DNA of 34,879 nucleotides from Gemmatimonadales bacterium. GTDB lineage: Bacteria; Gemmatimonadota; Gemmatimonadetes; Gemmatimonadales; GWC2-71-9. The number at the start of each line of letters is the position of its first letter. Positions within the stretch are counted from its first letter, which is position 1. The notes beneath the pieces were generated by a model that saw nothing but the letters and a program-made list of their open reading frames with translations, was not told where the DNA came from and did not search any database. This document shows, in pieces, positions 5,376 through 25,635 of this stretch. The translations under genes were made by a program, and so were the position numbers. The stretch lies in NCBI GenBank assembly GCA_025928955.1, contig JAICNA010000003.1, positions 1-34,879 on the forward strand, written 5' to 3'.

Positions 5376-5541
5376 CGGGCCCGACTCCAGGATGCGTCGA
5401 TGGCGGGTCGCCTTCGTCCCGGCCCCCAAGGTGCGCCACCCCCCGAGTCGCCGCGCGCGGTGACCTGCGCCGCATGGCCAGCGCCGGCTCGAGTATACGT
5501 TACGACAGGATCCCACGGAGTGACAGGAGGCAAGACCCCCG

Positions 5542-6504: not shown

Positions 6505-6681
6505 CGGCCGCCCGCGGCCCTTCCCCCGCCTCCAAAGGGGGTCCTATGTTCCCGTGAGCGACGCATCAGCGCGCACGCGGCTCCGCCACGACACGCCACC
6601 GAGGGCATCGCCATCCCCACCTTCGAACTTCCCCGCTCCGTATCGCGACTCCTTCGCCGCCGGGCGGACCCGCACGAGACG

Positions 6682-9600: not shown

Positions 9601-12600
9601 CCCGCCATCGCGCATGCCCTCGGCGCGCCGGCCATCGCCCGCGAACAGCGGCTCTCGCCGGACGCGAGAGGGCAGGTGATCCGGTACGCCCTGTTGCACT
9701 GGCGGTACTTCGAGACCTTCGTGACGGCCGAGACGAACTGGCTGGCGCCGGACAACTTCCAGGAAGACCCCACGCCCACCGTCGCGATGCGCACGTCGCC
9801 CACGAACATCGGGCTGCAGCTCATTTCCACGGTGAGCGCGGCGGACCTCGGCTTCATCGGGATCGGGCAGGCCGCGGAGCGGCTCGAGCGCGCCCTCCGC
9901 TCGCTCGAGCGGATGCGGCGATTCCGCGGGCACTTCTACAACTGGTACGGCCTCGCGGACCTGCACGTCCTCGAGCCGGGCTACATCTCGACGGTGGACA
10001 GCGGCAATCTCGCCGGGCACCTGATCGCGCTCCGGCAGGGCTGCCTCGAGCTGATCGAGACGCCGGCGGTCGATGCGCGGCTCATCAGGGCCGTCGAAAC
10101 GGCGCTCGATCTCTGCGAGCTCGCCCTGCTGGCCGCCCGCAACGCCCCAGAGGCGGATGGTGCCGAGCGGGCCGCTCGCAAGATTCCCGGCGAACTCGGT
10201 GCGGCGCGAGCCGCCGCGAAGGAGGCGCGCCGGGCACCGGTCTCGACGGCGGGGATCGAGAGCCTGGCCCAGCTGCTCCGGCGCGCGGAAGCCGCGCTTC
10301 GCGCAGACCGCGCCGAGGATGCCTACTGGGTGAGCTGGTCCCTCGCGCTCCTCGAGGCGCAGCGTCCCTGGATCTCGCTCGCCGAGCGGCAGCCCGCCGC
10401 GACGCTGCGCGAGCTCGCGCGCGATTCGGCGGAGGCCGCACGCCTCGTGTCGCGCCTCGAGGCGCTCGGTGAGCGGGCCTTCCAGTATGCGATGGACATG
10501 GACTTCCGCTTCCTCTTCGACGAGCAGCGACGCCTCTTCGCGATCGGGTTCCAGCAGACGAGCCACACCCTCGATGGATCCTATTACGACCTGCTCGCGT
10601 CCGAGGCCCGGCTCGCGAGCTTCGTGGCCATCGCCAAGAACGACGTGCCGGTCGAGCACTGGTTCCGCCTCGGGCGGACGCTCACGCGGGCGAGCGGCGC
10701 GCCGGCGCTCGTGTCGTGGAGCGGCAGCATGTTCGAATACCTCATGCCGATGCTGGTGATGCGGTCGTTCCCCTTCACGGTGCTGGCGGAAACGTACGAA
10801 GGGGCGGTGCAGCGGCACGCGTCATACGGCGCCGAGCGTAATGTGCCGTGGGGCGTGAGCGAGAGCGCTTACAACGTGCGGGACCGCACCTACACTTATC
10901 AGTACCGCGCCTTCGGCGTCCCCGACCTCGCCCTCAAGCGCGGCCTCGGTCGCGACCTCGTCGTGGCACCGTACGCGTCGATCCTGGCCGCGATGGTCGA
11001 GGCGCGCCGGGCCCTGCCGAACCTCATCCAGCTCGAGTCCCTGGGCCTGCTCGGCCCCTACGGGTTCCGGGAGGCGGTCGACTTCACGCGCCCCGATCCC
11101 GAGAAGGAGTTCGCGGTCGTCCGCGCCTACATGGCCCATCACATCGGCATGGGGCTCGTGGCGCTGACCAACATCCTCGCCGGGCAGGTCTGGCAGCGGC
11201 GATTCCACGCCGACCCGATGGTGCGCGCCGCGGAGCTGCTCCTGCACGAGCGCATCCCGCGGCGGCTCGTGATTCACCGGGCGCAGGGCGCGCGCCTCGA
11301 CGAGGCGCTGCCCGAACCGGAGATGGAGCGGCCCGCCGTCCGCGAGATCGAATCGGCGGACACGCGACGCCCGCACGTGGCGCTGCTTGGCCAGCTCCCA
11401 TACACGATCATGATCAGTCATTGCGGCGGCGGCTACAGCCGGTACGGGGGCATGGCCGTGACCCGCTGGCGCTCGGACGGGACGCGCGACGCCACCGGGC
11501 AGTTCTGCTACGTGCGCGACAACTCGACCGGGCAGGTCTGGTCGGCAACGCACCAGCCGGTCGGCGCCACGGCGGACTGGTACCGCGCCTACCTGGCCAC
11601 CGATCGCGTGACCGTGCACCGCGCGGACGGCGAGATCGAGACGCGCACCGAGATCGCGGTGGTACCCGAAGACTCCGCGGAGGTGCGGCGCGTGACGGTG
11701 ACGAACAACTCCGACGCCGTCCGTGAGGTCGACCTCACGAGCTATGGCGAGATCGTGCTCGCGGCGCCCGAGTCGGACCGCGCGCACCCCGCGTTCGGCA
11801 ACCTCTTCGTCGAGACCGAGTATCACGCGTGGTGCTCCGCGATCACCGCCACGCGGCGCCCGCGCTCCGGCAAGGAGCAGCCGATCTGGTGCGTGCACGT
11901 GGTCGCGACCGGCAGCGAGCGCGCCGACGCGGTGACGTGCGAGACCGACCGCGCGCGCTTCCTCGGCCGCGGGCGGACGACGGCCGATCCGGTGTCCGTG
12001 GAGAACGGGACACCGCTCTCCGGCACCACCGGCGCGGTGCTCGATCCCATCTTCGCGCTGCGCGTCCGGCTCCGGCTGGAGCCGGGTCAGGCGGCGAGCG
12101 CCTCGTTCACGACGCTCATTGCCCCGAATCGCGAACGGGCATTCGAGCTGGCGGATCGCTACAACGATCCGCATGCAGCCCAGCGGGCACTCGACCTCGC
12201 CTGGACCTCCACGCAGATCGAGCTCCGGGAGCTCGGCGTGACGCCCACGGAAGCGGCGGTGTTTCAGGAGCTGGCAGGCGACCTCCTCTATGGCGCAGCC
12301 GCGCGTCGCGCGACGCAGGCCGAGCTCCGGCTCAACCGCGGATCGCAGCCCCTGCTCTGGGCCAACGGCGTCTCGGGCGACTGGCCGATCCTCCTCGCGA
12401 CGATCGAGTCCGCCGAGGGCCTGCCGACGCTGCGCCAGCTCCTCACGGCGCACCGGTACTGGCGCCGGCGCGGCATGACGGTGGACCTCGTGATTCTCAA
12501 GACGCAGCCCTCGCAATACCTGGGGGATCTGTCCGAGCGGGTCACGGCGCTGCTGCACACGGTGGGCGAGAGCGGCGTGTTCGACCAGTCGGGCGGCGTC

Positions 12601-15324
12601 TTCATTCGCCAGGCGGACCAGCTCGGCGCCGACGAGCTCGCCATGCTGCGCGCCACTGCCCGTCTCCACGTCAACTGCGACGGCCGCGCGCTCGGGAGGA
12701 TTACCGAGGCCGCCGCGCCGTACGACGCGGCCGATCAGGATGAGGAGGAGTCGGCAGCGGCGCCCGACGAGCCGCGGAGCCCGGAGCGGCGGCGCCAGTC
12801 CCGCGTCGCGCGCGCGGTCCGGCGCCTCGGCGGGGCCCTTCCGTCGTTTCTCGCGCCGCTCGGCCCCGGGTCGGCGCCGGCCCATCCGCCGGGACCGGGC
12901 GCCGGCGCGCGCCACAGCGCGACGCCGGGGCTCGAGAACGGATTCGGGCGGCTCGCGCCGGATGGCGCGTACGAGATCGAGGTCGCGGGCGATCGCGTAC
13001 CGCCGGCACCATGGATCAACGTCGTCGCGAACCGCGCGGGCGGGTTCATCGTGTCGGAGCGCGGCGGCGGATGCGCCTGGGCGGAGAACAGCTTCTTCTA
13101 CCGGCTCACGCCGTGGCACAACGATCCGGTGAGCGATCCGGTGACCGACGCGATCTACCTGCAGGACTCGGCGAGCGGCGCACTCTGGACGGCGACACCC
13201 GGACCGGTGGACACCGGCGCGACGTTCACGGTCCGCCACGGACCGGGATATTCGTCGTTCGAGTCGGTGCACGATACGATCCGGACGCACCTCACGCTCG
13301 GCATGGCGGACGAGGCGCCGATACGCGTCTCGGTGCTCCGGGTCACGAACGAGGGCGCTGCCCCGCGCAGCCTCACGGTCACCAGCTATCTCGAATGGGC
13401 GCTCGGCGCGCTGCGTGAGCACACCCAGCACACCATCCGCACGGAGTTCGACGCCGGCACGGGAACGATCTACGCGTCGAACACGTTCGACCCCAGCTTC
13501 GCGTCGTGGCTGGCGTTCCACTCCATCAGCGCGGCCGTGTCGGCCCATACCGCGAGCCGGCGGGACTTCCTCGGCAGGAACGGATCACCGGCCGCACCCG
13601 CTGCGCTGGTGCACGGAGAGCCACTGGGCGGGCGAACAGGCGTCGGCAAGGACCCCTGTGCGGCGCTCCAGTGCCTGCTCGAGCTCGATCCGGGCGAGAC
13701 GCGGGAAGTCGTCCTCATCCTCGGCGCGGCGGCGTCGGCGGAGGAGGCCCGGCGCCTCGTGGCGGAACACCGTGACGGGCGCGTGGCGCGCGCTGCGCTC
13801 GACCGGTCCATCGAGGGGTGGTCCCGGCGGCTCTCGGTGGTGCAGGTCCGCACTCCCGAGCCGACCTTCGACGCGATGCTCAACCAATGGACCCTCTATC
13901 AGGCGCTCGCCTGCCGGATGTGGGGGCGGACGGCGCTCTATCAGAGCAGCGGCGCCTACGGATTCCGCGACCAGCTCCAGGACTCGATGGCCTTCCTGCA
14001 CGCCGAGGCGGGCGTCTCGCGCGAGCACCTGCTCCGTGCCGCGTCACGGCAGTTCCTGGAGGGGGATGTGCAGCACTGGTGGCATCCGCATAACGGGCGC
14101 GGTGTCCGGACGCGGTTCTCCGACGACCTCGCGTGGCTTCCGTTCGTCGTCGAGCATTACGTCGGCGTCACGGGGGACACTGCGGTGCTCGACGAACAGG
14201 TGCCGTTCCTGTCGATGCGGCTGCTCGAGCCGGAGGAACACGAGGTCTACGACCTGCCGGAGGTCGTGGCGCAGCGCGCGTCCCTCTACGACCATTGCCT
14301 TCTCGCGCTCCGGCGCGCGTGCACGACGGGAGCGCACGGCCTCCCGCTGATCGGCATCGGCGACTGGAACGACGGGATGAACCGGGTGGGGGTGGAGGGG
14401 CGCGGCGAAAGCGTGTGGCTCGCCTGGTTCCTGATCACGACCCTGCGGAGATTTGCCGCGCTCGCCGATGCGCGCAGCGACGACGCGACGGCATCCGAGC
14501 TTCGCGCGCAAGCCGATGCCTATGCCGCCGCCGTCGAGATGCACGCCTGGGACGGCGCCTGGTATCGCCGGGCGTGGTTCGACGACGGCACGCCGCTCGG
14601 ATCGTCGGAGAGCGAGGAGTGCCGGATCGATTCCATCGCGCAGAGCTGGAGCGTGATCTCCGGTGCCGGCGCGCCCGGGCGGCAGGCGCAGGCGATGCAG
14701 TCACTCGAGACGCACCTCGTGCGGGAGGACGCCCGCCTGCTCATGCTGCTGACGCCGCCGTTCGACAAGACGCCGCTCGATCCCGGGTACATCAAGGGCT
14801 ACCTGCCCGGGGTGCGCGAGAACGGGGCGCAATACACCCATGCGGCGCTGTGGGCGGTGCTGGCGACGGCGCTCCAGGGCAACGGAGACCGGGCGCTCGA
14901 GCTGTACCAGATGATCAATCCGCTCACGCACGCCCGAACGCCGGCTGACGTCGCCACCTACAAGGTGGAACCGTATGTCGTCGCGGCGGACGTCTACACG
15001 GCCGAGGGGCACCTGGGCCGCGGCGGTTGGACGTGGTACACCGGGTCGGCAAGCTGGATGTACCGGATCGGCCTCGAGGGCATCCTGGGACTCGAAAAGC
15101 GCGGGAATTCCCTCCACATCCAGCCACGCGCCCCCGCCGCATGGCAGGAGTACCAGATCGAGTACCGCTTCGGTGGAAGTACCTACGCCATCACGGTGCG
15201 GCGAGACGCCGGCACGACGTCGGTCGTCGCAGCCGTGGACGGCACGGAAACTCCGGACGGAAGCATTCCGCTCGTCGACGATGGACGGCGGCACGACGTC
15301 GTGGTGCGCCGGCCGGCGACGTGA
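6682..15324 (+). CDS. ndvB: Cyclic beta-1,2-glucan synthase (Cgs/NdvB/ChvB: GT84, cyclase domain, GH94-like phosphorylase)
   Basis: About 2880 aa. WLLDNYY, WMGWERKRGKL, YVITLDSDT, LLSHDLIEG, RWTRGDWQL, TM helices, PDNFQE, TSPTNIG, YYDLLASEAR, SWSGSMFEYLMP, WGVSES; GH94 motifs YQSSGAYGFRDQLQD, GDWNDGMN, ENGAQYTH, WYTGSA. Exact start is uncertain. Confidence 0.95.
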   Translation: MLAGPIRGDLLGAERLAERAQALAKSQRLARGGRRKTPLLARLDSTRSILAGAHRRLLDAADSGREVGPAGDWLLDNYYVVQEHIGEVRESLPSGYYRELPELATGSLAGYPRVYELAITLISHTEGRIDLQNTSSFVGAFQQSATLTIGELWAIPAMLRLGLIENVRRMALRTVQRLDSLEAADAAAAGILAAQADEPALEAALQDFISRRPPLDAIFVSRFLHQLRSEGGAHPTLRRLEQWVTEEAFGAEEATSRSTQRLALTQIAMANSISSLRAVGRMDWKTFVEAQSRIEHILRADPSGDYARMTFATRDRYRHVVENMARRTRKPETAVAELAIECARHGAALHPGAARYAHVGYYLVDDGVAELERLTGYRPHIREGLYRWVHRHPDVVFVGGVAAATAAALAALLWLGGAGVRTEWLAALLLAFIPANDIAVNVVNQLVTALLPPRLLPKLDLREHGIPPEFRTAVVIPTLFASLEAVEESLENLEVQFLANREAHLHFALLSDFTDAPTETRRGDEAIVAAAADGIRELNRRYAAATGDAFYLFHRPRRWNPQEGVWMGWERKRGKLAEFNRFVLGEEGSGFSTIVGDVTPLRSVRYVITLDSDTVLPPEAAALLVGALAHPLNRAEYDPARGRVVRGYGILQPRVGVSLPSAHRSLFASIHSGHPGVDPYTTAVSDVYQDLYGEGSFAGKGVYDVAAFEQATGGRFPENALLSHDLIEGNYARAGLATDVIVYDDYPARYLTYTRRKHRWTRGDWQLLPWLRRRVPAAGGREPNRLSLLSRWKIVDNLRRSVVEIAQLTFLLAGWLFMPVTPIRWTLVGLGAIAAPWVVSLLLAIVRPPFDKSWRAYYGAVARDAATSAKQFALAVVYLPHQAWNSADAIVRALWRMAVSRKHLLEWQTAVQTERSTEDSASVVWRAMWPAALVAALVLAIILWRAAPGSSHPAPLWQLGVGLLTLVIAWAVSPAIAHALGAPAIAREQRLSPDARGQVIRYALLHWRYFETFVTAETNWLAPDNFQEDPTPTVAMRTSPTNIGLQLISTVSAADLGFIGIGQAAERLERALRSLERMRRFRGHFYNWYGLADLHVLEPGYISTVDSGNLAGHLIALRQGCLELIETPAVDARLIRAVETALDLCELALLAARNAPEADGAERAARKIPGELGAARAAAKEARRAPVSTAGIESLAQLLRRAEAALRADRAEDAYWVSWSLALLEAQRPWISLAERQPAATLRELARDSAEAARLVSRLEALGERAFQYAMDMDFRFLFDEQRRLFAIGFQQTSHTLDGSYYDLLASEARLASFVAIAKNDVPVEHWFRLGRTLTRASGAPALVSWSGSMFEYLMPMLVMRSFPFTVLAETYEGAVQRHASYGAERNVPWGVSESAYNVRDRTYTYQYRAFGVPDLALKRGLGRDLVVAPYASILAAMVEARRALPNLIQLESLGLLGPYGFREAVDFTRPDPEKEFAVVRAYMAHHIGMGLVALTNILAGQVWQRRFHADPMVRAAELLLHERIPRRLVIHRAQGARLDEALPEPEMERPAVREIESADTRRPHVALLGQLPYTIMISHCGGGYSRYGGMAVTRWRSDGTRDATGQFCYVRDNSTGQVWSATHQPVGATADWYRAYLATDRVTVHRADGEIETRTEIAVVPEDSAEVRRVTVTNNSDAVREVDLTSYGEIVLAAPESDRAHPAFGNLFVETEYHAWCSAITATRRPRSGKEQPIWCVHVVATGSERADAVTCETDRARFLGRGRTTADPVSVENGTPLSGTTGAVLDPIFALRVRLRLEPGQAASASFTTLIAPNRERAFELADRYNDPHAAQRALDLAWTSTQIELRELGVTPTEAAVFQELAGDLLYGAAARRATQAELRLNRGSQPLLWANGVSGDWPILLATIESAEGLPTLRQLLTAHRYWRRRGMTVDLVILKTQPSQYLGDLSERVTALLHTVGESGVFDQSGGVFIRQADQLGADELAMLRATARLHVNCDGRALGRITEAAAPYDAADQDEEESAAAPDEPRSPERRRQSRVARAVRRLGGALPSFLAPLGPGSAPAHPPGPGAGARHSATPGLENGFGRLAPDGAYEIEVAGDRVPPAPWINVVANRAGGFIVSERGGGCAWAENSFFYRLTPWHNDPVSDPVTDAIYLQDSASGALWTATPGPVDTGATFTVRHGPGYSSFESVHDTIRTHLTLGMADEAPIRVSVLRVTNEGAAPRSLTVTSYLEWALGALREHTQHTIRTEFDAGTGTIYASNTFDPSFASWLAFHSISAAVSAHTASRRDFLGRNGSPAAPAALVHGEPLGGRTGVGKDPCAALQCLLELDPGETREVVLILGAAASAEEARRLVAEHRDGRVARAALDRSIEGWSRRLSVVQVRTPEPTFDAMLNQWTLYQALACRMWGRTALYQSSGAYGFRDQLQDSMAFLHAEAGVSREHLLRAASRQFLEGDVQHWWHPHNGRGVRTRFSDDLAWLPFVVEHYVGVTGDTAVLDEQVPFLSMRLLEPEEHEVYDLPEVVAQRASLYDHCLLALRRACTTGAHGLPLIGIGDWNDGMNRVGVEGRGESVWLAWFLITTLRRFAALADARSDDATASELRAQADAYAAAVEMHAWDGAWYRRAWFDDGTPLGSSESEECRIDSIAQSWSVISGAGAPGRQAQAMQSLETHLVREDARLLMLLTPPFDKTPLDPGYIKGYLPGVRENGAQYTHAALWAVLATALQGNGDRALELYQMINPLTHARTPADVATYKVEPYVVAADVYTAEGHLGRGGWTWYTGSASWMYRIGLEGILGLEKRGNSLHIQPRAPAAWQEYQIEYRFGGSTYAITVRRDAGTTSVVAAVDGTETPDGSIPLVDDGRRHDVVVRRPAT

Positions 15325-18882: not shown

Positions 18883-18955
18883 CGGTGGGGCTCTGTCCAT
18901 CCGTCAGGCGCGTCCCATGGCGCGCCCCACACGGCCCATTCATATTCGCCGTTCG

Positions 18956-20275
18956 ATGAGACGTCTCGCCGCATCGATTCGCCGCCGCCTCGGGGCCCGC
19001 CGCATCCCACTCCCACCCGGCCAGGCGGGTGACGAGCTGCGCGAGCGCGTGCTCGGCACCGCTCCCCGCCTCGAGCGCATCCTCTTCGAGAACATCCTGC
19101 CCTTCTGGTACCCGCGCGTCCTCGACCTGAAGCACGGTGGCTATCACCTGAATCACGGCCCCGACGGCACATCGCTCGGCCCGGCGCGGAAGAGCCTCGT
19201 CGGGACGGCCCGGACGCTCTGGTTCTTTTCCAGGATGGCACGTGCGGGGCACCAGCGCGATGCGATGCTGGAGGCGGCCCGGCACGGGTACGACTTCCTC
19301 GTGACGAGCTTCCTCGATGACCGGCACGGCGGGTTCTACTGGCACGTTTCCGAGGACGGCGCGGTGCCGCTCGATGCGACGAAGCATCAGTACGGACAGG
19401 CGTTCGCGATCTTCGCCCTCGCGGAATACGCGATGGCGACGGGATCCGAAGGGCCTGCACTGGTCGCGGAGGAGGCCTGCGAGCTGGTGGAGCTGCACCT
19501 GCGCGATCCGGAGCGCGGCGGATACTGGGACCAGCTCGAGCGGACCTGGGGGCCGGGGGCGCTCGAGCCGACCCGCACGCGAGGCGGCGCCAAGTATCTC
19601 GGCTCGATGCACCACCTGATGGAGGCGTACACCTGGCAGGCCCGGGCGCGGCCGGGGTCCATCGCAGCCGCCCGTCTCCCGGAGCTCATCCTCGTCTGTG
19701 CGAATGCGGTCGTCCGCATGCGGGAAGGCGCGCTGACCGACGCGCACCGACCCGACTGGTCGCCGCTCCTCGATGAGGAGCACGCGCGCGTCTCCTACGG
19801 TCACGACATCGAGACGATCCATCTCCTCATCGCCGCATGCGAGGCCGCGGGCGTCACGCCGCACGTGCTCTCCGGCCTCTATCGCGCGCTCCTGCAGAAC
19901 GCGCTGGCGCACGGGCACGACCGGCGGAAGGGCGGCTTCCACTACATGGGGCCGCTCGGGAAGCGGGCGGATCGCCGCGAGAAGATCTGGTGGGTACAGG
20001 CGGAGGCACTGCTCGGTACTCTCGAGATGTACCGGATCACCGGCGATCGCGCGCCCGCCGAGACGTACCTCTCTACGCTGGGCTGGGTCGAATCACGGCA
20101 GGTGGACTGGACGCATGGAGAGTGGCACGCGACCGTGCCCCCGCGCGGCCGCCCCTACGGCAGGAAGGCCGACGCCTGGAAAGGGCCGTACCACTCCGGC
20201 CGCGCGGTCATTCACTCACTGGAGGCGCTGGCGGCGCTGAGGGCGCCACGCGACGGCGACCGATCGAGCGCTTGA
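18956..20275 (+). CDS. AGE family epimerase (cellobiose 2-epimerase-like)
   Basis: NILPFW, ARTLWFFS, GGFYW, KHQYGQAFAIFALAEY, HLMEA, SYGHDIE, WWVQAE, WKGPYHSGRA. Start could also be 18917. Confidence 0.9.
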   Translation: MRRLAASIRRRLGARRIPLPPGQAGDELRERVLGTAPRLERILFENILPFWYPRVLDLKHGGYHLNHGPDGTSLGPARKSLVGTARTLWFFSRMARAGHQRDAMLEAARHGYDFLVTSFLDDRHGGFYWHVSEDGAVPLDATKHQYGQAFAIFALAEYAMATGSEGPALVAEEACELVELHLRDPERGGYWDQLERTWGPGALEPTRTRGGAKYLGSMHHLMEAYTWQARARPGSIAAARLPELILVCANAVVRMREGALTDAHRPDWSPLLDEEHARVSYGHDIETIHLLIAACEAAGVTPHVLSGLYRALLQNALAHGHDRRKGGFHYMGPLGKRADRREKIWWVQAEALLGTLEMYRITGDRAPAETYLSTLGWVESRQVDWTHGEWHATVPPRGRPYGRKADAWKGPYHSGRAVIHSLEALAALRAPRDGDRSSA

Positions 20276-20936
20276 GCATGGTGAACATGTCCTCCGCGCT
20301 CGCGTTCCAGTTGGCGGTGAGGTTCCGCCCGTGCCTGCGACGGCGGACGAGGACGTCCGGCACGCATTCGGTCACGATGCCCGCCTCCCGCGCCCGGAAG
20401 TGCCAGTCGGTATCCTCGCCGGTGCGGAGCGCCGGGTCGAACGGCCCGATCCGGTCGAACAGCTCCCGCCGCATGAGCATCAGCGGTGGACCATGCGCGA
20501 GATGCGGCTGCGCGAGCCACGTGTCCCGCGCCCGCTCCTCGATCTCCCTGAGCTCCGGCTCCCAGAAGTTCTGGAGGTAGCCGACGCAGAGGTCGATCGA
20601 CGGATTGCGTCGGAAGCAGTCCATCTGCCGCTCGAGCTTGTCCGGCACCCAGAGGTCGTCCGCGTCCTGGAAGGTGAGCCATCCCCCGCGCGCTTCCGCC
20701 ACGCCGCGGTTGCGCGCAGCCGAGGGGCCGGCGTTCGGCTGGAAGAACGTGCGGATCCTGTCGCCGAACCCCGCGAGGATGTCCTCGGTCCCGTCGGTGG
20801 ACCCGTCGTCGACCACGATGACCTCGAGGGGTCGGTAGGCCTGCGCCAGGACGCTCTCGATGCTCGCGGCGACGAATCGTGCCCCGTTGTACACAGGGAT
20901 GACGCAGCTGACGAGGTCCGGATCGTATCGGGTCAC
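20208..20936 (-). CDS. GT2 (family A) glycosyltransferase
   Basis: VSCVIPVYN, VVDDGSTD, NAGPSAARNRG, FQDADD, GEDTDW. Confidence 0.92.
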   Translation of the reverse strand: MTRYDPDLVSCVIPVYNGARFVAASIESVLAQAYRPLEVIVVDDGSTDGTEDILAGFGDRIRTFFQPNAGPSAARNRGVAEARGGWLTFQDADDLWVPDKLERQMDCFRRNPSIDLCVGYLQNFWEPELREIEERARDTWLAQPHLAHGPPLMLMRRELFDRIGPFDPALRTGEDTDWHFRAREAGIVTECVPDVLVRRRRHGRNLTANWNASAEDMFTMLKRSIGRRRVAPSAPPAPPVSE

Positions 20937-21631
20937 GAGGACGGCACCTCCTTCCGTCGGTCCTTGTTGCGCTTGAGCAGCGCGAGAAATTCGTCGCGGC
21001 TCTGCGGGGCGGCCTTCCGCGAGCGGTTGTTCGCGTGGATGCGGCGGCGCAGGAGCACGTCTGGCAGCAGCTCACCGCGCAGGCCGGCCTCCCGGGCGCG
21101 CAGGAACCAGTCGGCCGAATCGCCGTGGCCGAGCTCGGCGTTCATCGGGCCGACGCGGTCGAAGGCCGCCCGCCGCGCGAGCAGCGTCGGCGACACCCAT
21201 CCCGCGATCGGCTCCGAACGCCGGTGGCCCCTGTAGCGGTCCGCCTCGTCCTGCATCTCCTCGACCCAGAAGTTCTGCACGTGCGCCACGCAGAAATCGA
21301 GCTCCGGTTTCGCGTCGAGCAGCGCCAGCTGCACCGCCAGCTTCTCCGGTGTCCACAAGTCGTCGGAGTCGTTGAAGGCGATGAAGTCGCCGCGCGCCAC
21401 GCCGAGGCCGGTGTTCCGCGCGACGGCCGGTCCGGCGTTCGCCTGGCGCAGGCCGCGGACCCGGTCGCCGAAGCGGCGGATCACGGCAGGGGTTCCATCC
21501 GTGGAGCCGTCGTCGACGACGATGATCTCGAGCGGCCGATGCGCCTGGGCGAGGATGCTCTCGATCGACTGCGCGAGGTATGCCTCGCAGTTGAACACCG
21601 GGACGATGCAGCTCACCAGGGGACTGCTCAT
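20933..21631 (-). CDS. GT2 (family A) glycosyltransferase
   Basis: VSCIVPVFN, VVDDGSTD, NAGPAVARNTG, FNDSDD; 4-nt overlaps with both neighbours. Confidence 0.92.
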   Translation of the reverse strand: MSSPLVSCIVPVFNCEAYLAQSIESILAQAHRPLEIIVVDDGSTDGTPAVIRRFGDRVRGLRQANAGPAVARNTGLGVARGDFIAFNDSDDLWTPEKLAVQLALLDAKPELDFCVAHVQNFWVEEMQDEADRYRGHRRSEPIAGWVSPTLLARRAAFDRVGPMNAELGHGDSADWFLRAREAGLRGELLPDVLLRRRIHANNRSRKAAPQSRDEFLALLKRNKDRRKEVPSS

Positions 21632-22689
21632 TCGGCCTCTCCGCGGAGCATGCGGCCGATCGCGTCGGGAATGCCCGGCAGATCGGATCCGAGCTCCAGC
21701 CAGTAGGTGGGTACCGATTCGACGAGCGCGGCCATCGTGTCGAAGCGGGCGCGGCCGGCGCCCAGGAACGGAAGCTGGAACAGTGAGCTGGGCGCGAGCT
21801 GCTTCAGCACGGCAACCTTCGACGCGGGGCGGAATCGCGTCTCGACGCGCGGCACCACGCGCGGAAGCGCAATGGCACGAATCGCCGCGCCGTTGGCGAA
21901 TCCTTCCGGAAACAGCCCCGACAGAAGGACCATGTGCTTGTCTTCGCGCTCGAGCTTCCCCGGCATCGCGTGCGGCACGAGGTCGGGAAACCGCTGGAGG
22001 TGGTGTGGCTCGAAGTGGCTCGATGAATAGAGGCTGTGGCCGAACCAGGTGCCGTCGTCCCGCCGCTCGAGTCCGACATAGTCGTCGGCGAGGTACTGGT
22101 AGCCGGCCCGGAGGCACGTCACGGCCGTCGTCGTCTTCCCCGATCCTCCCGGTCCGCCGAAGAGCACGCCTTCACCGTCGCGGGCGACGAGACCGGCATG
22201 CACGGCCTGGATCCCGCGATCGCGCATCCAGAGGAGGAGCGACGCATGGAGCGGGCGGCCGAGCTCGTACTGGGTGAGCCGTTCCGCCGAGCTCACCCAG
22301 CCGGTCTTCGCGCTCGCCTGGCGGTCGGAGAGCGTCACCGTGCACGGGCTCTGCTGCTTTACGTGCCGTCCGCCGTCGTAAACCATCACGGTGCCGTGAG
22401 CGTTCGGGTCGCTCCCCTCGACGCAATCCTCACAGCCCACGCCTGTCGCCGCTTCGTCCCACAGGTCGATCGTGAGATCGGGCGCGGCGGCGCTTTCGGC
22501 AGCGCGAAGGTGGGCGAGCGGCCGGTCGTATGCGTCGCCGAGTGCGCGTCCGGCGAACCGCATCCGCACCGGACGTCCGGCGATGCGGTAGTCTCGCACC
22601 ACGACCTGGTCCGGTTGGGCCGCGCAGGCCGCGCGGAACGCGCCCGACAGCCGCTCGTACGTGGCGACACCAGCCGCGCTGGAATTCAT
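21628..22689 (-). CDS. HPr-kinase-related P-loop kinase (lasso-peptide-kinase-like)
   Basis: VHAGLV (His), Walker A GPGGSGKTT, YLADDY (DD motif); SD GGAG; ATGA overlaps at both ends; 353 aa. Confidence 0.85.
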   Translation of the reverse strand: MNSSAAGVATYERLSGAFRAACAAQPDQVVVRDYRIAGRPVRMRFAGRALGDAYDRPLAHLRAAESAAAPDLTIDLWDEAATGVGCEDCVEGSDPNAHGTVMVYDGGRHVKQQSPCTVTLSDRQASAKTGWVSSAERLTQYELGRPLHASLLLWMRDRGIQAVHAGLVARDGEGVLFGGPGGSGKTTTAVTCLRAGYQYLADDYVGLERRDDGTWFGHSLYSSSHFEPHHLQRFPDLVPHAMPGKLEREDKHMVLLSGLFPEGFANGAAIRAIALPRVVPRVETRFRPASKVAVLKQLAPSSLFQLPFLGAGRARFDTMAALVESVPTYWLELGSDLPGIPDAIGRMLRGEAE

Positions 22690-23903
22690 GCGATCTCCGC
22701 CTCGAGGGAGCCCGGCATCCTGACCCGTCGCACGCGCTCGCGGAAGGCGGCGATGCCATGGTGCCAGATCCGGTATGGGTAGAGCAGTGGAACCGGCAAT
22801 CGCCGGCCGCGGTAGGCGTGACGCAGGTACGACGCCGAGGGGAAGAGCAGCCAGCCGAGTGCCCAGAGCCTGGGCCGAACACCTCCCGGGACGCGACGCA
22901 CGAGTGCGAGCGCCGGCAGCCCGGCCCGAGCCCCGTAGAGCGCAATGTCGCGGGCGATCGGCGAGGCCTCGCGTGCCAGGCTGTCGAGCCGATCGAGCAC
23001 CGCTCCCGGGATCGGACTCTCGAGCTCTTCCGCGAGATAGCGCAGCATCACCGAAACCGGCAGCGCAAGGCGCGCTGCTGCAGCTCCGCTGACGGCGACT
23101 TCCCAATCGATCTCGGGACCGCGATGGATCAGCAGCCATGCATCGATGACCCATCGAAGACTCCCGCGAACCGGGCTCTGCGACGCGCCGCCGCAGATGT
23201 GCAGGAGCTGGTCGGCGGCGCCGAGCGTCCGCACGCGCTCGCCGAGCAGGGCGCGCCGCTCGGCGCGACCGTGCATCCCGGGGAGCTCCGCGGCATAGTA
23301 CGGATCGAGAAAGAGCGATGAGTGGATCTCGACCGGGAGACCCGACGGATGTACCAGGCGGACGCCGCCCGGCAGACGATCGGGATCGTCGGCCCGCTCC
23401 GTGAACCCTGCCGCCCGCGCGGCATCCACGGCGCGCTCGAGTTCGGCGGGCGGAACGAAGAGGTCGATGTCGTGGGTGTGGCGGCGGAACGGCTCCGGAT
23501 ACACCGTCTCGGCCAGCACGATCCCGCGCAGGAGGATCGCATCGACGCCACGATCCGCGAGTGATGCGATCAGGCTGCGCGCGAGTCGCCGCACGGTCTC
23601 GTAGCGAACCCGCTCGCGCGCGGCGGCCATGCGGAGCACCCGCAGGGAGTCGCCGCCGACGTGCGGTGCGCCATCGGCGTCCGCCGCCCTCGCTTCGAGC
23701 AACGGGCTCAGCGTCCGCAGCGCGGCCCGCTGCGGGGCCGGGAGGAGCTGCGGCCGCTCGAGCTCGGGCGCAATGCCGGCGAGCGCGCGGCGACCCGCTT
23801 CACCCCGAAGGAGCGCAGCGCGGAGCAGCCGCGTCTGCCCGCCGTCGGGCAGCAGCAGCGCGAGGCCCGACGTGAGAGCGGCCTCGCGAGCAGTCACAGC
23901 CAT
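22686..23903 (-). CDS. Nucleotidyltransferase family protein (NTP_transf_5-like)
   Basis: ILLRGIVLAETVYPEPFRRHTHDIDLFV, VEIH, DQLLHIC, LRWVIDAWLL, IDWE. Confidence 0.85.
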   Translation of the reverse strand: MAVTAREAALTSGLALLLPDGGQTRLLRAALLRGEAGRRALAGIAPELERPQLLPAPQRAALRTLSPLLEARAADADGAPHVGGDSLRVLRMAAARERVRYETVRRLARSLIASLADRGVDAILLRGIVLAETVYPEPFRRHTHDIDLFVPPAELERAVDAARAAGFTERADDPDRLPGGVRLVHPSGLPVEIHSSLFLDPYYAAELPGMHGRAERRALLGERVRTLGAADQLLHICGGASQSPVRGSLRWVIDAWLLIHRGPEIDWEVAVSGAAAARLALPVSVMLRYLAEELESPIPGAVLDRLDSLAREASPIARDIALYGARAGLPALALVRRVPGGVRPRLWALGWLLFPSASYLRHAYRGRRLPVPLLYPYRIWHHGIAAFRERVRRVRMPGSLEAEIA

Positions 23904-23912
23904 GGCGAGAGA

Positions 23913-24350
23913 TTATCCGGCGACGGTCGCGTCGCCCCAGGCCGACTCGTCGAGCCCGGGCATCGGAGGATCGAGTGCGAGCAGGTCCGCCATGTCGGTG
24001 AACTTCTGCAGCGACGGCGTGGCGTATTCGGCCTGCATGCTCACGTACGGGACCGCAGCTGGAGCGGGGCGCTCGGCGACGACCAGAAGCTCCTCGGCGA
24101 GGAGGTCATCGACGACGGCGTCGACGTCGCGCTCGAGCATCTCACGCGCCACGTCGAAGCGCTCGGCGAGCGCGGAGACGGATTCCTCGCGGCTGCACCC
24201 CTGCTCGAGCAGCTCCCAGAGCGCGGCGCCTACGCCGTCCATGCTGTAATACGCTCCGGTCGCCAGGTTCATGATGATGGCTTCGCCATCGATCACCTTG
24301 CCGGTCACGTCGCCGCTCCGGAGCTGATATCGCACCGCTGCATCGGACAT
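23913..24350 (-). CDS. PqqD-family RiPP recognition element (RRE) with a fused C-terminal leader-like peptide
   Basis: SD GAGG. The first ~90 aa (VIDGEAIIMNLATGAYYSMDGVGAALWELL...LAERFDV...DVDAVVDDLLAEELL) match the PqqD pattern; tail EYATPSLQKFTDMADLLALDPPMPGLDESAWGDATVAG; 145 aa. Confidence 0.88.
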   Translation of the reverse strand: MSDAAVRYQLRSGDVTGKVIDGEAIIMNLATGAYYSMDGVGAALWELLEQGCSREESVSALAERFDVAREMLERDVDAVVDDLLAEELLVVAERPAPAAVPYVSMQAEYATPSLQKFTDMADLLALDPPMPGLDESAWGDATVAG

Positions 24351-24405: not shown

Positions 24406-25635
24406 CTACGGAAGGGTTCTCCAGACGCCGAGGTCGCGCCGGCCCGTGTCGGTCGCCAGGCCGAGCGGCGCGCAAAGCGCGATCCAGCATTGGTATAGCG
24501 CGAGCGAAAGCGCCAGCCGCGCGCCGGTGCCGCCCCGTCGCCGGGCGCCGTCCGGATCGTCGGCTCCCTGCCAGACCCACTCCAGCGGCTCCTCCTCACC
24601 GGCCATCAGCCGCCTCAGATGTTGCGTCCGCGCGGCACCGGCAGCGAGCCAGATCTCCTGCAGGAATGCGCCGAGCCCGCGCTCCGGCCCGGTTCCCCTC
24701 GCGATCCCTGATACCGGTGTGAGCAACGCCAGCGCCGCCTGCGCCGCGCGACCGACACCGAGGCGGCGCACCAGGTCGGAAGGGACCGCGGTGCCGAGCA
24801 GGCGATGCGACAGCTGGAGCGACAGCGCCACCGGCGCACCGAGGCCGCCGCGCCTCGCTTCCGCAACCACGGCATCCCAGTCGATCGGGTGTGCCGCAAT
24901 CACCCGGTCGAGATCCACCAGGCGGCGGAGCTTGGAGAAGTGATCCTCGGTGTTCTGCGAGGACAGGTGGAGCACCATGTGCTCGGCACACGGAACGCGC
25001 GCCACCCCGCCGCCGAACTCGACGCGCTCGGCGCGCGCGATGAACTCCCGCGCATCGAGCCGGTGGGTGCTCACGTCGGGCGTCAGCGCCCAGTGCAGCT
25101 CCGCTTCGAACCCGTTCGGGTGATGGAGCGGCAGGTGGAAGTGGTGATCGCGAAAGCCGTCGATCACCGCCTGCGAATCGGGCATCCGGTATCCGGCCGC
25201 CACGAGCCGCTCGACGACGCGATCCATTTCCGCGTCGGGGACGAGGAGGTCGAGGTCGCCGACCGGCCGCTCGACGGGATTGCGATAGGTCGTGAGGCGG
25301 AGCGCAGCGCCCTTGAGCAGGACCGGCGAGAGCCCCTCGCGCGCGAGGAGGGCGAGGACGCGATCGCGCTCCATGTCCCAGAGACGGGCCTGCTGAGCGA
25401 GGGTCCGGAGCGGCGCCGTGATCGCGCTCGAGGTCGCGGCATCGAAGCCATGCGGCGCGCGCGATCGGAAGGCGGAAAGCACCAGGCCCAGCACGCCCTG
25501 GCGCATCGCATAGGCGTGGAACGCACCGCGATCGGCCGCCCGCCCCAGCGGACGCAGCTGGTCGGAATCCAGCTGCTCGGACGCATCCCGGCGGCTGAGC
25601 GCGAGCGTGAGCTCGAAGGCTTCTCCGATCTTCAT
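24406..25635 (-). CDS. Nucleotidyltransferase family protein (NTP_transf_5-like)
   Basis: SD GGGAG; PVLLKGAAL...Y..PVERPVGDLDLLV, ELHWAL, EHMVLHL, LRRLVDLD, IDWD. Confidence 0.87.
   Translation of the reverse strand: MKIGEAFELTLALSRRDASEQLDSDQLRPLGRAADRGAFHAYAMRQGVLGLVLSAFRSRAPHGFDAATSSAITAPLRTLAQQARLWDMERDRVLALLAREGLSPVLLKGAALRLTTYRNPVERPVGDLDLLVPDAEMDRVVERLVAAGYRMPDSQAVIDGFRDHHFHLPLHHPNGFEAELHWALTPDVSTHRLDAREFIARAERVEFGGGVARVPCAEHMVLHLSSQNTEDHFSKLRRLVDLDRVIAAHPIDWDAVVAEARRGGLGAPVALSLQLSHRLLGTAVPSDLVRRLGVGRAAQAALALLTPVSGIARGTGPERGLGAFLQEIWLAAGAARTQHLRRLMAGEEEPLEWVWQGADDPDGARRRGGTGARLALSLALYQCWIALCAPLGLATDTGRRDLGVWRTLP

Follow-up and report, generated by a model that had tools for sequence, protein, structure and literature searches.

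A stand-alone lasso-type RRE protein with a conserved leader-like tail in cis, encoded in a kinase, glycosyltransferase and nucleotidyltransferase cassette

The window, meaning the whole stretch of DNA analyzed, comprised 34,879 nucleotides from a Gemmatimonadales bacterium (assembly GCA_025928955.1, contig JAICNA010000003.1). A minus-strand operon within it contained two nucleotidyltransferase genes, an RRE gene, a kinase gene and two GT2 genes only, and these genes overlapped or were 9-55 bp apart. The following genes were assigned:

24406..25635, minus strand: second NTP_transf_5 nucleotidyltransferase, 409 aa, directly upstream of the RRE gene (PF14907, 149.9 bits)
23913..24350, minus strand: RRE-plus-tail gene, 145 aa, from the open reading frame and its translation (ATG at 24350, stop codon 23913-23915)
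22686..23903, minus strand: NTP_transf_5 nucleotidyltransferase, 405 aa, directly downstream of the RRE gene (PF14907, 109.1 bits)
21628..22659, minus strand: HprK-like P-loop kinase, 343 aa from the ATG at 22659 (Hpr_kinase_C, 27.9 bits, under the cut-off of 33.3)
20933..21640, minus strand: GT2 glycosyltransferase a, 235 aa, start inferred from the Pfam match (PF00535, 118.1 bits)
20208..20936, minus strand: GT2 glycosyltransferase b, 242 aa, last gene of the operon (PF00535, 118 bits)

The sequence GAGG was located 7 nt upstream of the ATG of the RRE gene. A MatE gene and a MacB/FtsX-like gene were also present in the window, several kb away, and were not conserved with the cassette. PADLOC returned no anti-phage defence match for the RRE protein, either nucleotidyltransferase or the kinase.

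Related loci were considered fully flanked when at least 5 kb was available on both sides (n = 48). HprK-type kinase genes were found in 44/48, GT2 genes in 47/48 and nucleotidyltransferase genes in 45/48 of these, all three types occurring together in 43/48, with one to three GT2 genes as core members. The kinase was the immediate downstream neighbor in 41 of the 71 loci with enough downstream sequence, and an orthologue of the upstream nucleotidyltransferase occupied the same place in L002-L007, L014, L017 and others; the synteny is established by these gene orders. The kinase was absent from 4/48 fully flanked loci, and at one locus (L078) none of the three enzyme types lay within 8 kb; the tail motif described below was kept in every such case.

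The RRE protein was divided into five parts:

24075..24350, minus strand: RRE (PqqD-like winged helix) domain, residues 1-92, from the AF2 model, Foldseek and phmmer
24027..24074, minus strand: variable Ala/Pro/Gly-rich linker, residues 93-108 (column entropy ~3 bits or more)
24000..24026, minus strand: putative cis leader motif YATPSLQKF, residues 109-117, from conservation and the AF2 strand
23958..23999, minus strand: near-invariant post-leader motif TDMADLLALDPPMP, residues 118-131, from alignment conservation, with a short helix at 120-125 in the AF2 model
23916..23957, minus strand: variable distal tail GLDESAWGDATVAG, residues 132-145, from the alignment (AF2 pLDDT <50 for 136-145)

Residues 23-89 were matched by Pfam PqqD (PF05402; 62.5 bits vs. 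a cut-off of 23.4). The AF2 model (pLDDT 83, pTM 0.75 overall; pLDDT 91-96 across residues 11-90) placed strands at 7-10, 15-20, 23-28, 33-38 and 89-92 and helices at 39-49, 54-64 and 69-85, and matched the three-strand, three-helix winged-helix fold of solved RREs. The top Foldseek match was TbiB1 with bound leader (5v1v_A; E = 1.6e-6, 36% identity, rmsd 1.2 A, TM to target 0.88), TfuB1 was also matched (E = 2.5e-3), and phmmer returned TbiB1 (1.1e-11), PbaB1 (9x90_B; 4.9e-5) and LppB (9x8z_B; 1.5e-4). The NCBIfam lasso_PqqD chaperone models NF033536 and NF033530 stayed under their cut-offs (49.2 vs. 80 and 38.5 vs. 70 bits). The domain contains a conserved sheet face, KVIDGEAI..NL..G.YYS, and the pocket residue D75. 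Names in the ESM Atlas and cluster databases were uninformative (‘PqqD family protein’ or ‘hypothetical protein’).

Homologues of the RRE protein numbered 452 (79-254 aa, E ≤ 1e-3) among 938 candidates, the majority being 137-153 aa long with >85% of the query covered. The RRE-tail family was broad: 1402 clusters at 50% identity matched at E ≤ 1e-10, and the strict tail motif was present in 218 of the 264 family proteins retrieved. Hosts included Gemmatimonadota, Acidobacteriota, Rokubacteria, Chloroflexota, Planctomycetota, Bacteroidota, Actinomycetota, Pseudomonadota and others, and not Bacillota.

YATPSL occupies residues 109-114 (24009-24026), is preceded by AERPAPAAVP and is followed by QKFTDMADLLALDPPMPGLDESAWGDATVAG. 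An earlier note, made from the letters of the window, had described an RRE with this motif after a Pro/Ala linker, and coordinates, translation and Pfam domain all agreed with that description. Its remark that the tail lacks a normally placed cleavage site also held: relative to canonical lasso leader and cleavage spacing, T118 lies at L114+4 and there is no Thr ~10 residues past L114.

Conservation was calculated for the window plus 79 loci from other genomes of many phyla (n = 80). The leader motif followed the consensus [Y/F/W]xxPx[L/F]xx[Y/F/H], with Y109 conserved in 96%, P112 in 100% and L114 in 95%, and with Y at position 117 in 82%, where the window carries F. Past it, D119 (93%), M120 (96%), M130 (74%) and L123, L124, A125, L126, D127, P128, P129 and P131 (each 91-100%; D127 99%) were retained, so that conservation over Y109, P112, L114, [Y/F]117 and D119-M-x-D-L-L-A-L-D-P-P-M-P131 ranged from 72-100% and was mostly 91-100%. 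The linker and the residues past 133 were variable. The span 89-108 had a median length of 22 (range 18-49 in 320 sequences; A 18%, P 16%, G 11%), and the motif was followed by 7-34 aa after DP (median 16). In the distal tail, G132, L133, P/A137 and W138 (66%) were semi-conserved and nothing beyond L133 exceeded 66%. Alignment of the homologues, which the earlier note had called for, accordingly separated a conserved stretch from YxxPxL through the DP motif from a variable distal tail, and the lack of conservation that would have counted against its proposal was not seen. Measured by column, conservation is higher in the tail than anywhere else in the protein. On the same measure the real invariant is the DMADLLALDPPMP segment, outside the RRE-binding motif proper and undervalued in the earlier note.

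For the RREs of linear polyphosphorylated peptide (LPP) clusters of Bacillota, the available text of Popov et al. (2026; PMC13381572) describes an LppB RRE, an LppK HprK-like kinase, an LppN NTP transferase, an LppS peptidase, an LppD exporter and an LppA precursor; there the LppA leader pairs with an RRE strand over Y+4 to Y+9, LppB D70 hydrogen-bonds the leader Tyr, and F74, M78 and L83 line the Pro pocket and a second pocket. In the AF2 model of the window protein DSSP assigned a strand at 115-117 (pLDDT 90 for block 111-120), followed at moderate confidence by a helix at 120-125 (pLDDT 63 for block 121-130). Because strand 115-117 falls within the Y+4 to Y+9 pairing of the LppA leader, it was counted in favor of docking in cis. 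In the phmmer alignment D75 corresponded to LppB D70, and V79, L83 and L88 to F74, M78 and L83. We infer from the strand, the pLDDT and this homology that Y109, P112 and L114 would sit in the corresponding pockets. Docking of the tail in the cleft of its own RRE is predicted by these models and is considered quite likely.

Tandem relatives followed the same arrangement. In a two-RRE protein (P0121), strands were predicted at 112-115 after PYEQPKL and at 231-233 after YEPPRL. A [Y/F/W]xx[P]x[L/I/V/A] motif stood after every RRE in 7/8 tandem relatives, with a DMxDLLxLDP-type motif once, at the end; the exception (P0211) had DLQDLFLMDP after the first RRE and a tailless third RRE. The earlier note had suggested structure prediction to see whether YATPSLQKF adds a strand to the sheet; residues 115-117 of it did so in the model with high confidence, as did the segments after both RREs of P0121. 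Its proposal of a self-occupying leader mimic is supported by tail conservation together with this predicted strand.

Pairing of positions 109 and 75 was also tabulated (n = 320): Y with D in 286, Y with non-D in 11, F/W with D in 2, F/W with non-D in 17 and other combinations in 4. On a FastTree tree only 6 changes of Y109 and 13 of D75 were placed, and an independent-pairs sign test cannot reach 0.05. Covariation was rejected as statistical proof of contact and, given so few independent changes, was kept as a hint only.

Several searches were made for a separate or split precursor, and none gave support for one. A regular expression for the tail motif, run in six frames over 81 sources, matched once in 70, in no case a second time and in no case outside the PqqD gene; the 11/81 sources without a match carried variant motifs. 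Searching 301 genomes of the phylum with the tail alone produced matches in 10 of them, each in an open frame of at least 165 aa. When proteins of 30-78 aa were searched with residues 100-145, one candidate of 40 aa was returned, a fragment on a 650-bp contig. Clustering of 8615 small ORFs yielded no precursor: ten of the twelve largest clusters were on the opposite strand, and the two on the plus strand lay within GT2 coordinates in another frame in the members compared.

These searches bear on a purely structural explanation, under which the cis strand and helix would stabilize the RRE and a true substrate encoded elsewhere would displace the tail (autoinhibition or competition). LppB is described as insoluble without leader in the available text of PMC13381572, and the genome is 78.5% complete, leaving room for a distant precursor gene. 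However, D119-P131 lies beyond the docked strand and is more conserved than the RRE-binding motif, which stabilization would not need, no standalone peptide with the motif was found in the searches above, and tandem forms retain one cis strand per RRE; this explanation is regarded as very unlikely.

A lasso cluster was rejected as an assignment. The B2 peptidase (PF13471) had no match in the window's 78.5%-complete genome and no such ORF cluster among the 80 loci. As a size-based check for a cyclase, clusters with a median length of at least 450 aa were looked for among 3622 ORFs (≥90 aa), and none occurred in more than 6/81 sources; the lasso chaperone models were under cut-off. None of the ten named ORF clusters found in at least 4 sources, which comprised the cassette families of the window and six others named through representatives, was a peptidase or an exporter by family naming. 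The HPr-rel-A system was also rejected: the kinase reached 36.9 bits against the HprK_rel_A (TIGR04352) equivalog cut-off of 200, and the RRE protein had no match at E ≤ 0.01 to the PqqD-partner model of that system, which we take to be TIGR04353.

In the kinase, H154, G169, G174, K175, D193 and K241 were invariant (n = 51 sequences). Co-folding with the RRE protein, which the earlier note had also proposed, gave an ipSAE of 0.67 (runs 0.68, 0.67 and 0.63) against 0.00 for the best control, and so passed a mark that was reached by 58/80 solved complexes and 2/110 mismatched pairs and that is rough for custom alignments. The runs had at least 51% of contacts in common and a partner pLDDT of at least 74. 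The kinase resembles solved HprK/P structures in the P-loop core alone (residues 150-206), so it is improbable that the pass reflects a memorized RRE-kinase complex. The predicted interface comprised kinase residues 170 and 280-314 and residues 13-38, 117, 119 and 120 of the RRE protein, that is, the RRE sheet face, with tail 117-120 close to the kinase P-loop; it included no tail residue beyond 120 with confidence. On the co-fold, the kinase is probably bound through the RRE sheet.

Candidate acceptor residues were then compared. Position 118 was rejected as a universal phospho-acceptor: only 21/51 kinase-linked sequences have T or S there, against 17 with R and 6 with D. S36, conserved in 48/51, was considered and set aside; in the co-fold it lay on the exposed sheet face against kinase 280-314, away from the P-loop. 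Ser and Thr were lacking altogether from Y109 onward in 5/218 motif-bearing tails and in 3/51 kinase-linked tails, whereas Asp or Glu was found at 119 in 51/51 and at 127 in 51/51 kinase-linked sequences.

The other proposal of the earlier note was that the precursor is fused to its chaperone with the acidic tail as core, taken here as the distal tail after PMPGL with the Ser/Thr of DESAW and ATV as acceptors. The variable part of a RiPP is usually the core, the window protein has S136 and T142, and 25% of 218 tails carry S or T at position 136. Against this, the part after DP can be as short as 7 residues (e.g., PMPGLGALPE), 47/218 tails lack Ser/Thr after DP, conservation beyond L133 does not exceed 66%, and the distal tail had a pLDDT <50 and no confident kinase contact. 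T118, S136 and T142 are not conserved and the distal tail is variable (7-34 aa); as there is no universal Ser/Thr acceptor, this proposal is unsupported and hardly probable at all.

A different fused precursor was also considered, in which leader, core and RRE form one chain, a carrier-bound RiPP-like protein, and the post-leader segment is covalently modified, the product staying on the protein or being freed by a peptidase encoded elsewhere. Since no hydroxyl residue is universal, the acceptor would then be the acidic residue at 119 or 127, or would be lineage-specific. No other peptide candidate was found in the operon or in the 80 related loci, the co-fold set tail 117-120 beside P-loop residue 170 of the kinase, and the acidic positions were retained as above. 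An invariant core is normal for products of fixed structure, such as PQQ and mycofactocin. Homologous enzymes act on RRE-bound peptides: LppK polyphosphorylates LppA Ser3 in the available account (PMC13381572), and PsmK and then PsmN phosphorylate the C-terminal Ser of pseudomycoidin and add a hexose (PMC6993621, as far as its available text describes). The LppA motif is given as YxxPxVLxHQxIxFETxxS with the phosphorylated Ser at Y+18 (PMC13381572, available text), and by spacing alone Y109+18 is D127. On the other hand, the characterized relatives phosphorylate Ser only, LppA S3T and S3Y not being phosphorylated in the same available text (PMC13381572), the hydroxyl-free tails and the T/S or R alternation at position 118 (R in 17/51) also count against it, and no conserved peptidase or exporter was found among the ORF clusters of the loci. 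This explanation is possible, and we hold it to be rather doubtful.

A more specific form would make the tail the true substrate with a carboxylate acceptor, D127 (Y+18) or D119, in place of the phospho-Ser of the LPP/paeninodin type. D119 would cap the N-terminus of the tail helix, close to the P-loop of the kinase, and the kinase would form an Asp acyl phosphate that NTP_transf_5 and GT2 enzymes then elaborate. Kinases of this family phosphorylate an anionic phosphoserine oxygen (polyphosphorylation) and so could phosphorylate Asp; we know of no case in which enzymes of these families phosphorylate or glycosylate a carboxylate, a point against the fused precursor in general. If true, which is unlikely, the product would be an acyl-phospho-glycan borne by a protein that unites RRE, leader and core in one carrier, and, with no free precursor peptide involved, it would form a new class of ribosomal product.

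The explanation preferred here is that the protein is a lasso-B1-type RRE permanently loaded with its own leader and acting as the adaptor of the cassette, to which we give about an even chance. The flexible Ala/Pro linker would allow [Y]xxPx[L]xx[Y/F] at the C-terminus to double back and occupy the RRE cleft, with the Tyr in a pocket closed by D75, the Pro and Leu in hydrophobic pockets and residues 115-117 as an extra strand of the sheet. The self-loaded unit would be a non-catalytic adaptor subunit of a kinase/GT2/NTP_transf_5 cassette without a separate precursor gene. Its exposed sheet face (the DGEAI, G32, Y34, S36 side) would bind the C-terminal region of the HprK-like kinase, and [D/E]-M-x-D-L-L-A-L-D-P-P-M-P, right after the docked strand, would be the element that faces the enzymes. 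We infer an adaptor or pseudo-substrate role for the tail, with the post-leader segment serving as a docking or pseudo-substrate motif and not as a classical Ser/Thr core, and with the tail keeping the enzymes assembled and ‘leader-activated’. That the tail is not covalently consumed falls just short of an even chance; that it is covalently modified is a real, if tentative, possibility. An adaptor would leave the enzymes without a known substrate. That five tailoring-type enzymes come with no other peptide speaks for the tail itself being what they act on.

RRE domains are the usual handle for genome mining of ribosomal natural products and are assumed to bind a separately encoded leader. An RRE with its own leader, if confirmed, would be a natural counterpart of the engineered ‘leader in cis’, would explain RiPP-like kinase/GT2/NTase cassettes without a precursor, and would caution that mining by RRE can pick out loci in which the RRE protein is itself the ‘precursor’. 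The RRE-tail protein offers a compact, soluble model for RRE-leader recognition, and a near-invariant DMADLLALDPPMP segment without a hydroxyl acceptor poses a testable puzzle about HprK-like kinase and NTP_transf_5 activity.

Among known systems, the LPP/paeninodin tailoring module comes nearest. Likenesses to LPP clusters, as far as the available text of PMC13381572 describes them, are a lasso-type RRE with an HprK-like kinase and an NTP_transf_5-type transferase, here seemingly without a lasso cyclase, a YxxPx[V/L] leader motif whose Tyr is hydrogen-bonded by an Asp aligned to D75, a conserved post-motif stretch off the RRE that is thought to face the enzymes, and glycan-rich gene neighborhoods. 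The combination that defines LPP clusters, a discrete RRE with an HprK-like kinase and an NTP transferase, was found here, with the kinase Pfam score under cut-off and the P-loop, H154 and D193 invariant. Unlike the LPP systems of that text, the window family has the leader fused to the RRE and no separate precursor, has one to three GT2 genes as core members, has an invariant Asp (D127, 99% of 80) at the phospho-Ser position Y+18, and occurs in many phyla and not in Bacillota; the SpI-like (SipW-like) signal peptidase and MsbA-like exporter are not among its conserved named ORF clusters. Neither HPr kinases nor nucleotidyltransferases are mentioned in the available text of two RRE surveys (PMC7470986, PMC12710340). 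The literature searched contained no account of a naturally occurring RRE-leader fusion, nor of this cassette; supplements may list such architectures.

In paeninodin and pseudomycoidin, homologues of the kinase and nucleotidyltransferase tailor RRE-bound precursors, according to the available text of PMC6993621 and PMC9266682. The lasso B1 proteins (TbiB1, 5v1v/5v1u; TfuB1, 6jx3; PbaB1, 9x90) share the fold, with up to 37% identity to TbiB1, and the recognition motif; they differ in that the window family has its leader in cis, lasso_PqqD scores under cut-off, no B2 peptidase match in the window or its 78.5%-complete genome and no B2-type or cyclase-sized cluster conserved in the 80 loci. In borosins, a core is fused to its own methyltransferase (PMC8429565, available text). 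There too a single polypeptide combines the recognition or processing protein with the peptide tail that it handles; in that description the fused partner is catalytic and the modified residues are known, whereas the partner in the window family is a non-catalytic RRE. Leaders have reportedly been joined to the cyanobactin heterocyclase LynD and to the lanthipeptide synthetase LctM in engineered leader-enzyme fusions. The likeness lies in a cis-tethered leader that keeps the recognition domain bound and activating; those fusions are laboratory constructs on catalytic enzymes, whereas the window family is natural, widespread and built on a stand-alone RRE.

The RRE-tail protein lies in a reverse-strand operon with gaps of 9-55 bp or overlapping genes, upstream of which a MarR-family gene diverges. 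The genes of the operon, and the gene that converges on its end, are:

25635-24406, reverse strand, NTP_transf_5 nucleotidyltransferase (NTase), first gene of the operon
24350 (ATG) to 23913-23915 (stop), reverse strand, RRE-tail gene, ORF of 145 aa
23903-22686, reverse strand, NTP_transf_5, next after the RRE-tail gene
22659-21628, reverse strand, HprK-like kinase, operon gene 4
21640-20933, reverse strand, GT2, operon gene 5
20936-20208, reverse strand, GT2, operon gene 6
18917-20275, forward strand, N-acylglucosamine 2-epimerase / cellobiose 2-epimerase family gene (Pfam 138.7 bits), converging on the cassette end

That the RRE-tail protein is a self-loaded RRE serving the kinase/GT2/NTase cassette is well supported. 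Its ATG is preceded, 7 nt upstream, by a GAGG. Pfam PqqD covers residues 23-89 (62.5 bits vs. a cut-off of 23.4), followed C-terminally by a Pro/Ala linker, YATPSL (residues 109-114; 24026-24009) and QKFTDMADLLALDPPMPGLDESAWGDATVAG. The ORF, translation and Pfam match agree with the earlier note, which had described an RRE, linker and lasso-type leader motif in one protein at these coordinates. An AlphaFold2 model (34-sequence alignment as input; mean pLDDT 83, pTM 0.75) had a core of strand-strand-strand-helix-helix-helix with two short terminal strands. Foldseek against the PDB ranked the leader-bound lasso B1 protein TbiB1 first (5v1v_A, E 1.6e-6, 36% identity, rmsd 1.2 Å) and also matched TfuB1 with leader (6jx3_B). 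Using phmmer against PDB sequences, TbiB1 (1.1e-11), PbaB1 (9x90_B, 4.9e-5) and LppB (9x8z_B, 1.5e-4), the RRE of linear polyphosphorylated peptide (LPP) clusters, were matched. In the ungapped LppB alignment D75, V79, L83 and L88 correspond to LppB D70, F74, M78 and L83; Popov et al. 2026 (PMC13381572) describe a hydrogen bond between D70 and the leader Tyr hydroxyl, with F74, M78 and L83 lining the Pro pocket and a second hydrophobic pocket. Fold and pocket residues are those of a lasso-type RRE, its leader pocket intact. Both NCBIfam lasso-chaperone models match below cut-off (49.2 vs. 80; 38.5 vs. 70), and relatives are named only 'PqqD family protein' or 'hypothetical protein' in databases.

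Homologues were collected by a word-based search (938 candidates, E<=1e-3), which gave 452 proteins of 79-254 aa, the majority 137-153 aa with >85% query coverage, and by searching 1.84 billion representatives exhaustively and profile-free, which gave 8536 proteins at E<=1e-3, 1402 of them at E<=1e-10. The homologue alignment suggested in the earlier note was made with 79 genomic loci from many phyla plus the window (n = 80), and, judged by residue conservation, its tail is better conserved than the RRE domain. D75 was kept in 90%, Y109 in 96%, P112 in 100% and L114 in 95%; position 117 was Tyr in 82% (Phe in the window). In the post-leader motif, D119 was kept in 93%, M120 in 96% and M130 in 74%, and L123, L124, A125, L126, D127, P128, P129 and P131 in 91-100% each. 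The linker (93-108) and all residues past L133 were variable. Invariant tail columns of the 34-sequence alignment were Y109, D119, M120, L124, A125, L126, D127, P128, P129 and P131. The family consensus is P-Y-x-x-P-x-L-x-x-[Y/F]-x-D-M-A-D-L-L-A-L-D-P-P-M-P-G-L-x-x-x-P-W; a strict pattern covering all of the motif was matched by 218 of 264 fetched proteins, and 7-34 aa (median 16) follow the DP motif. Within the phylum the tail is patchy: a search of 301 genomes recovered it in 10, counting the window's own and an unpublished one (G157).

Docking of the motif in cis was predicted by the AlphaFold2 monomer. Residues 115-117 were assigned as a strand by DSSP and thus hydrogen-bonded to the domain in the model (block 111-120, pLDDT 90), in line with the earlier proposal that YATPSLQKF might add a strand; a short helix follows at 120-125 (block 121-130, pLDDT 63), and 136-145 are disordered. 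The predicted strand falls inside the Y+4 to Y+9 span over which the leader of LppA, the LPP precursor, pairs with its RRE strand (PMC13381572). The span 89-108 (median 22 residues, range 18-49, rich in Ala/Pro/Gly) is long and flexible enough for docking in cis, and the side chains of Y109, P112 and L114 would sit in the RRE pockets. Across 320 non-redundant sequences, Tyr at 109 was paired with Asp at 75 in 286 and with another residue in 11, Phe/Trp with Asp in 2 and with non-Asp in 17, with 4 other combinations; this agrees with published Tyr-reading RREs using the Asp and Trp-reading ones not using it (PMC13381572). As position 109 changes only 6 times on the tree and an independent-pairs test cannot reach significance, the covariation is a hint only of a Tyr-Asp contact.

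Tandem relatives from the exhaustive search carry two RREs (P0121, P0122, P0123, P0125, P0129) or three (P0124, P0134, P0211). In seven of the eight, as read from sequence, each RRE is followed 15-25 residues on by [Y/F/W]xx[P]x[L/I/V/A]xx[Y/F/H], and a single DMxDLLxLDP-type motif stands after the last RRE; the exception, P0211, has DLQDLFLMDP after its first RRE and a third RRE without tail. The P0121 model (5-sequence alignment, pLDDT 81) had a strand at 112-115 (LRIY) directly after PYEQPKL and a second at 231-233 (NLY) after YEPPRL, then a helix at 236-240 (MEDLL), so that one docked strand per RRE is predicted. Several tandem proteins end in ...DP[I/V]HD...GWP rather than DPPMPGL..PW.

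For the neighbourhood, one genome per species was scanned, which gave 103 relatives; 80 loci were kept, from Gemmatimonadota, Rokubacteria, Acidobacteriota, Chloroflexota, Verrucomicrobiota, Planctomycetota, Bacteroidota, Actinomycetota, Nitrospirota, Pseudomonadota, Abditibacteriota and others. By tblastn with the window's proteins, at the 48 loci with >=5 kb on each side, kinase was found in 44, GT2 in 47, NTase in 45 and all three in 43. The immediate downstream neighbour (80 loci) was kinase in 41, GT2 in 17, NTase in 4 and another gene in 9, the flank being too short in 9. One Anaerolineae MAG locus (L078) has the RRE-tail gene and motif with no kinase, GT2 or NTase match within 8 kb either side, and two loci without kinase (L016, L036) have a GT2 ~100 bp downstream, so the presence of the motif does not depend on the kinase alone. 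Clustering of all 3622 ORFs >=90 aa across loci gave an NAD-dependent epimerase (14 loci), a sulfotransferase (5) and GT10 (4) as recurrent extras, which points to a sugar-building context; among the clusters named, no cyclase-sized, peptidase or exporter family was seen to recur. An ORF related to the 18917-20275 epimerase occurs in 5 other loci. The window's genome (2.77 Mb, 248 contigs, 78.5% complete) contains one PqqD match and, at that completeness, no match to a B2-type peptidase.

Elsewhere in the window, a 2939-aa ORF (6505-15324, forward strand) combines a GT2-like region and a glucoamylase-like domain with two GH94 supersandwich stretches and a GH94 catalytic domain, the architecture known from cyclic beta-1,2-glucan synthases; directly before it lies a gene for an AAA ATPase of 326 aa (5524-6504, forward strand). 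A LigD primase-polymerase domain protein (711-1805, forward strand, Pfam 292.8 bits) is unrelated to the RRE-tail finding.

Three lines of search found no separate precursor peptide. The tail motif was present in exactly one copy in 70 of 81 sources and as a variant in the remaining 11; no copy lay outside the PqqD gene. A tail-region search among proteins of 30-78 aa returned a single candidate (40 aa, on a 650-bp contig), most simply a fragment. Of the twelve largest clusters of conserved small ORFs in the loci, ten lay on the opposite strand, and the two plus-strand ones overlapped GT2 coordinates in the members compared.

Co-folding with the kinase, also proposed in the earlier note, was performed with 51-row alignments of each protein (same loci, same order) and three controls. 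The score was 0.67 (runs 0.68, 0.67, 0.63) vs. 0.00 for the best control, with at least 51% of contacts common to the runs and partner pLDDT of at least 74; in calibration, 58 of 80 solved complexes attained the mark used, against 2 of 110 mismatched pairs, counts that are only rough for custom alignments. The confident interface comprised kinase residues 280-314 and 170, and on the RRE side 13-38 (including 32, 34, 36 and 38, one sheet face) with positions 117, 119 and 120 of the tail. Kinase residue 170 belongs to the Walker A loop; G169, G174 and K175, and also H154, D193 and K241, are invariant in 51 sequences. As only kinase residues 150-206 resemble any solved structure (HprK/P), the result is unlikely to stem from a memorised RRE-kinase complex. 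The C-terminal third has no solved-structure match, and 280-314 is its predicted RRE-binding surface, where 39-42 of 51 sequences keep L285, A289, P290 and V313. The model supports, short of proof, kinase binding to the RRE sheet face and tail 117-120, and this predicted contact would account for the strong conservation of DGEAI, G32, Y34 and S36.

Whether the tail is itself a substrate was considered from its acceptor residues. In characterised relatives Ser is the sole phosphorylated residue: LppK, the LPP kinase, polyphosphorylates LppA Ser3, with S3T and S3Y variants staying unphosphorylated (PMC13381572), and PsmK phosphorylates the C-terminal Ser of pseudomycoidin, PsmN being needed for hexose addition to the phosphate (PMC6993621). 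The RRE-tail family has no universal hydroxyl residue in its 218 tails or the 51 kinase-linked ones. Ser/Thr is absent from Y109 onward in 5 of 218 tails and 3 of 51 kinase-linked tails; in the latter set position 118 is T/S in 21, R in 17 and D in 6, and position 117 is Y in 41, F in 7 (the window among them) and H in 3. Asp/Glu occupies 119 and 127 in 51/51. In LppA the Ser that receives the phosphate sits at Y+18 of the motif YxxPxVLxHQxIxFETxxS (PMC13381572), and by spacing, not structure, D127 (Y109+18) would match it.

The earlier suggestion that the acidic distal tail is a core with Ser/Thr acceptors fares worst, since 47/218 tails lack any Ser/Thr past the DP motif and the residues past L133 vary. 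A close second is a fused precursor that is covalently modified, necessarily at carboxylate or lineage-specific sites: there is no other peptide on which the five tailoring-type enzymes could act, and the co-fold would bring tail 117-120 to the kinase P-loop, but a universal acceptor is missing. Slightly favoured is an adaptor: the tail would supply a leader within the same molecule and, beyond it, a docking or pseudo-substrate motif, and the protein would be permanently 'leader-bound'. It was given more weight because no acceptor is universal, the motif is invariant in the manner of an interface, the RREs follow a rule of one strand each, and a related RRE is reported to be insoluble when its leader is absent.

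Full-text literature searches, and passages of two RRE surveys (PMC7470986, PMC12710340), yielded no description of a naturally occurring RRE-leader fusion or of this cassette, although supplements could list such architectures. The closest described system is the LPP cluster and the next the paeninodin/pseudomycoidin tailoring pair, which have RRE, kinase and NTase in common with the window's cassette. Unlike these, the window's cassette has no conserved peptidase or exporter detected around it, has GT2s as core members, has the leader fused to the RRE and, by spacing alone, would place an Asp where the phospho-Ser stands.
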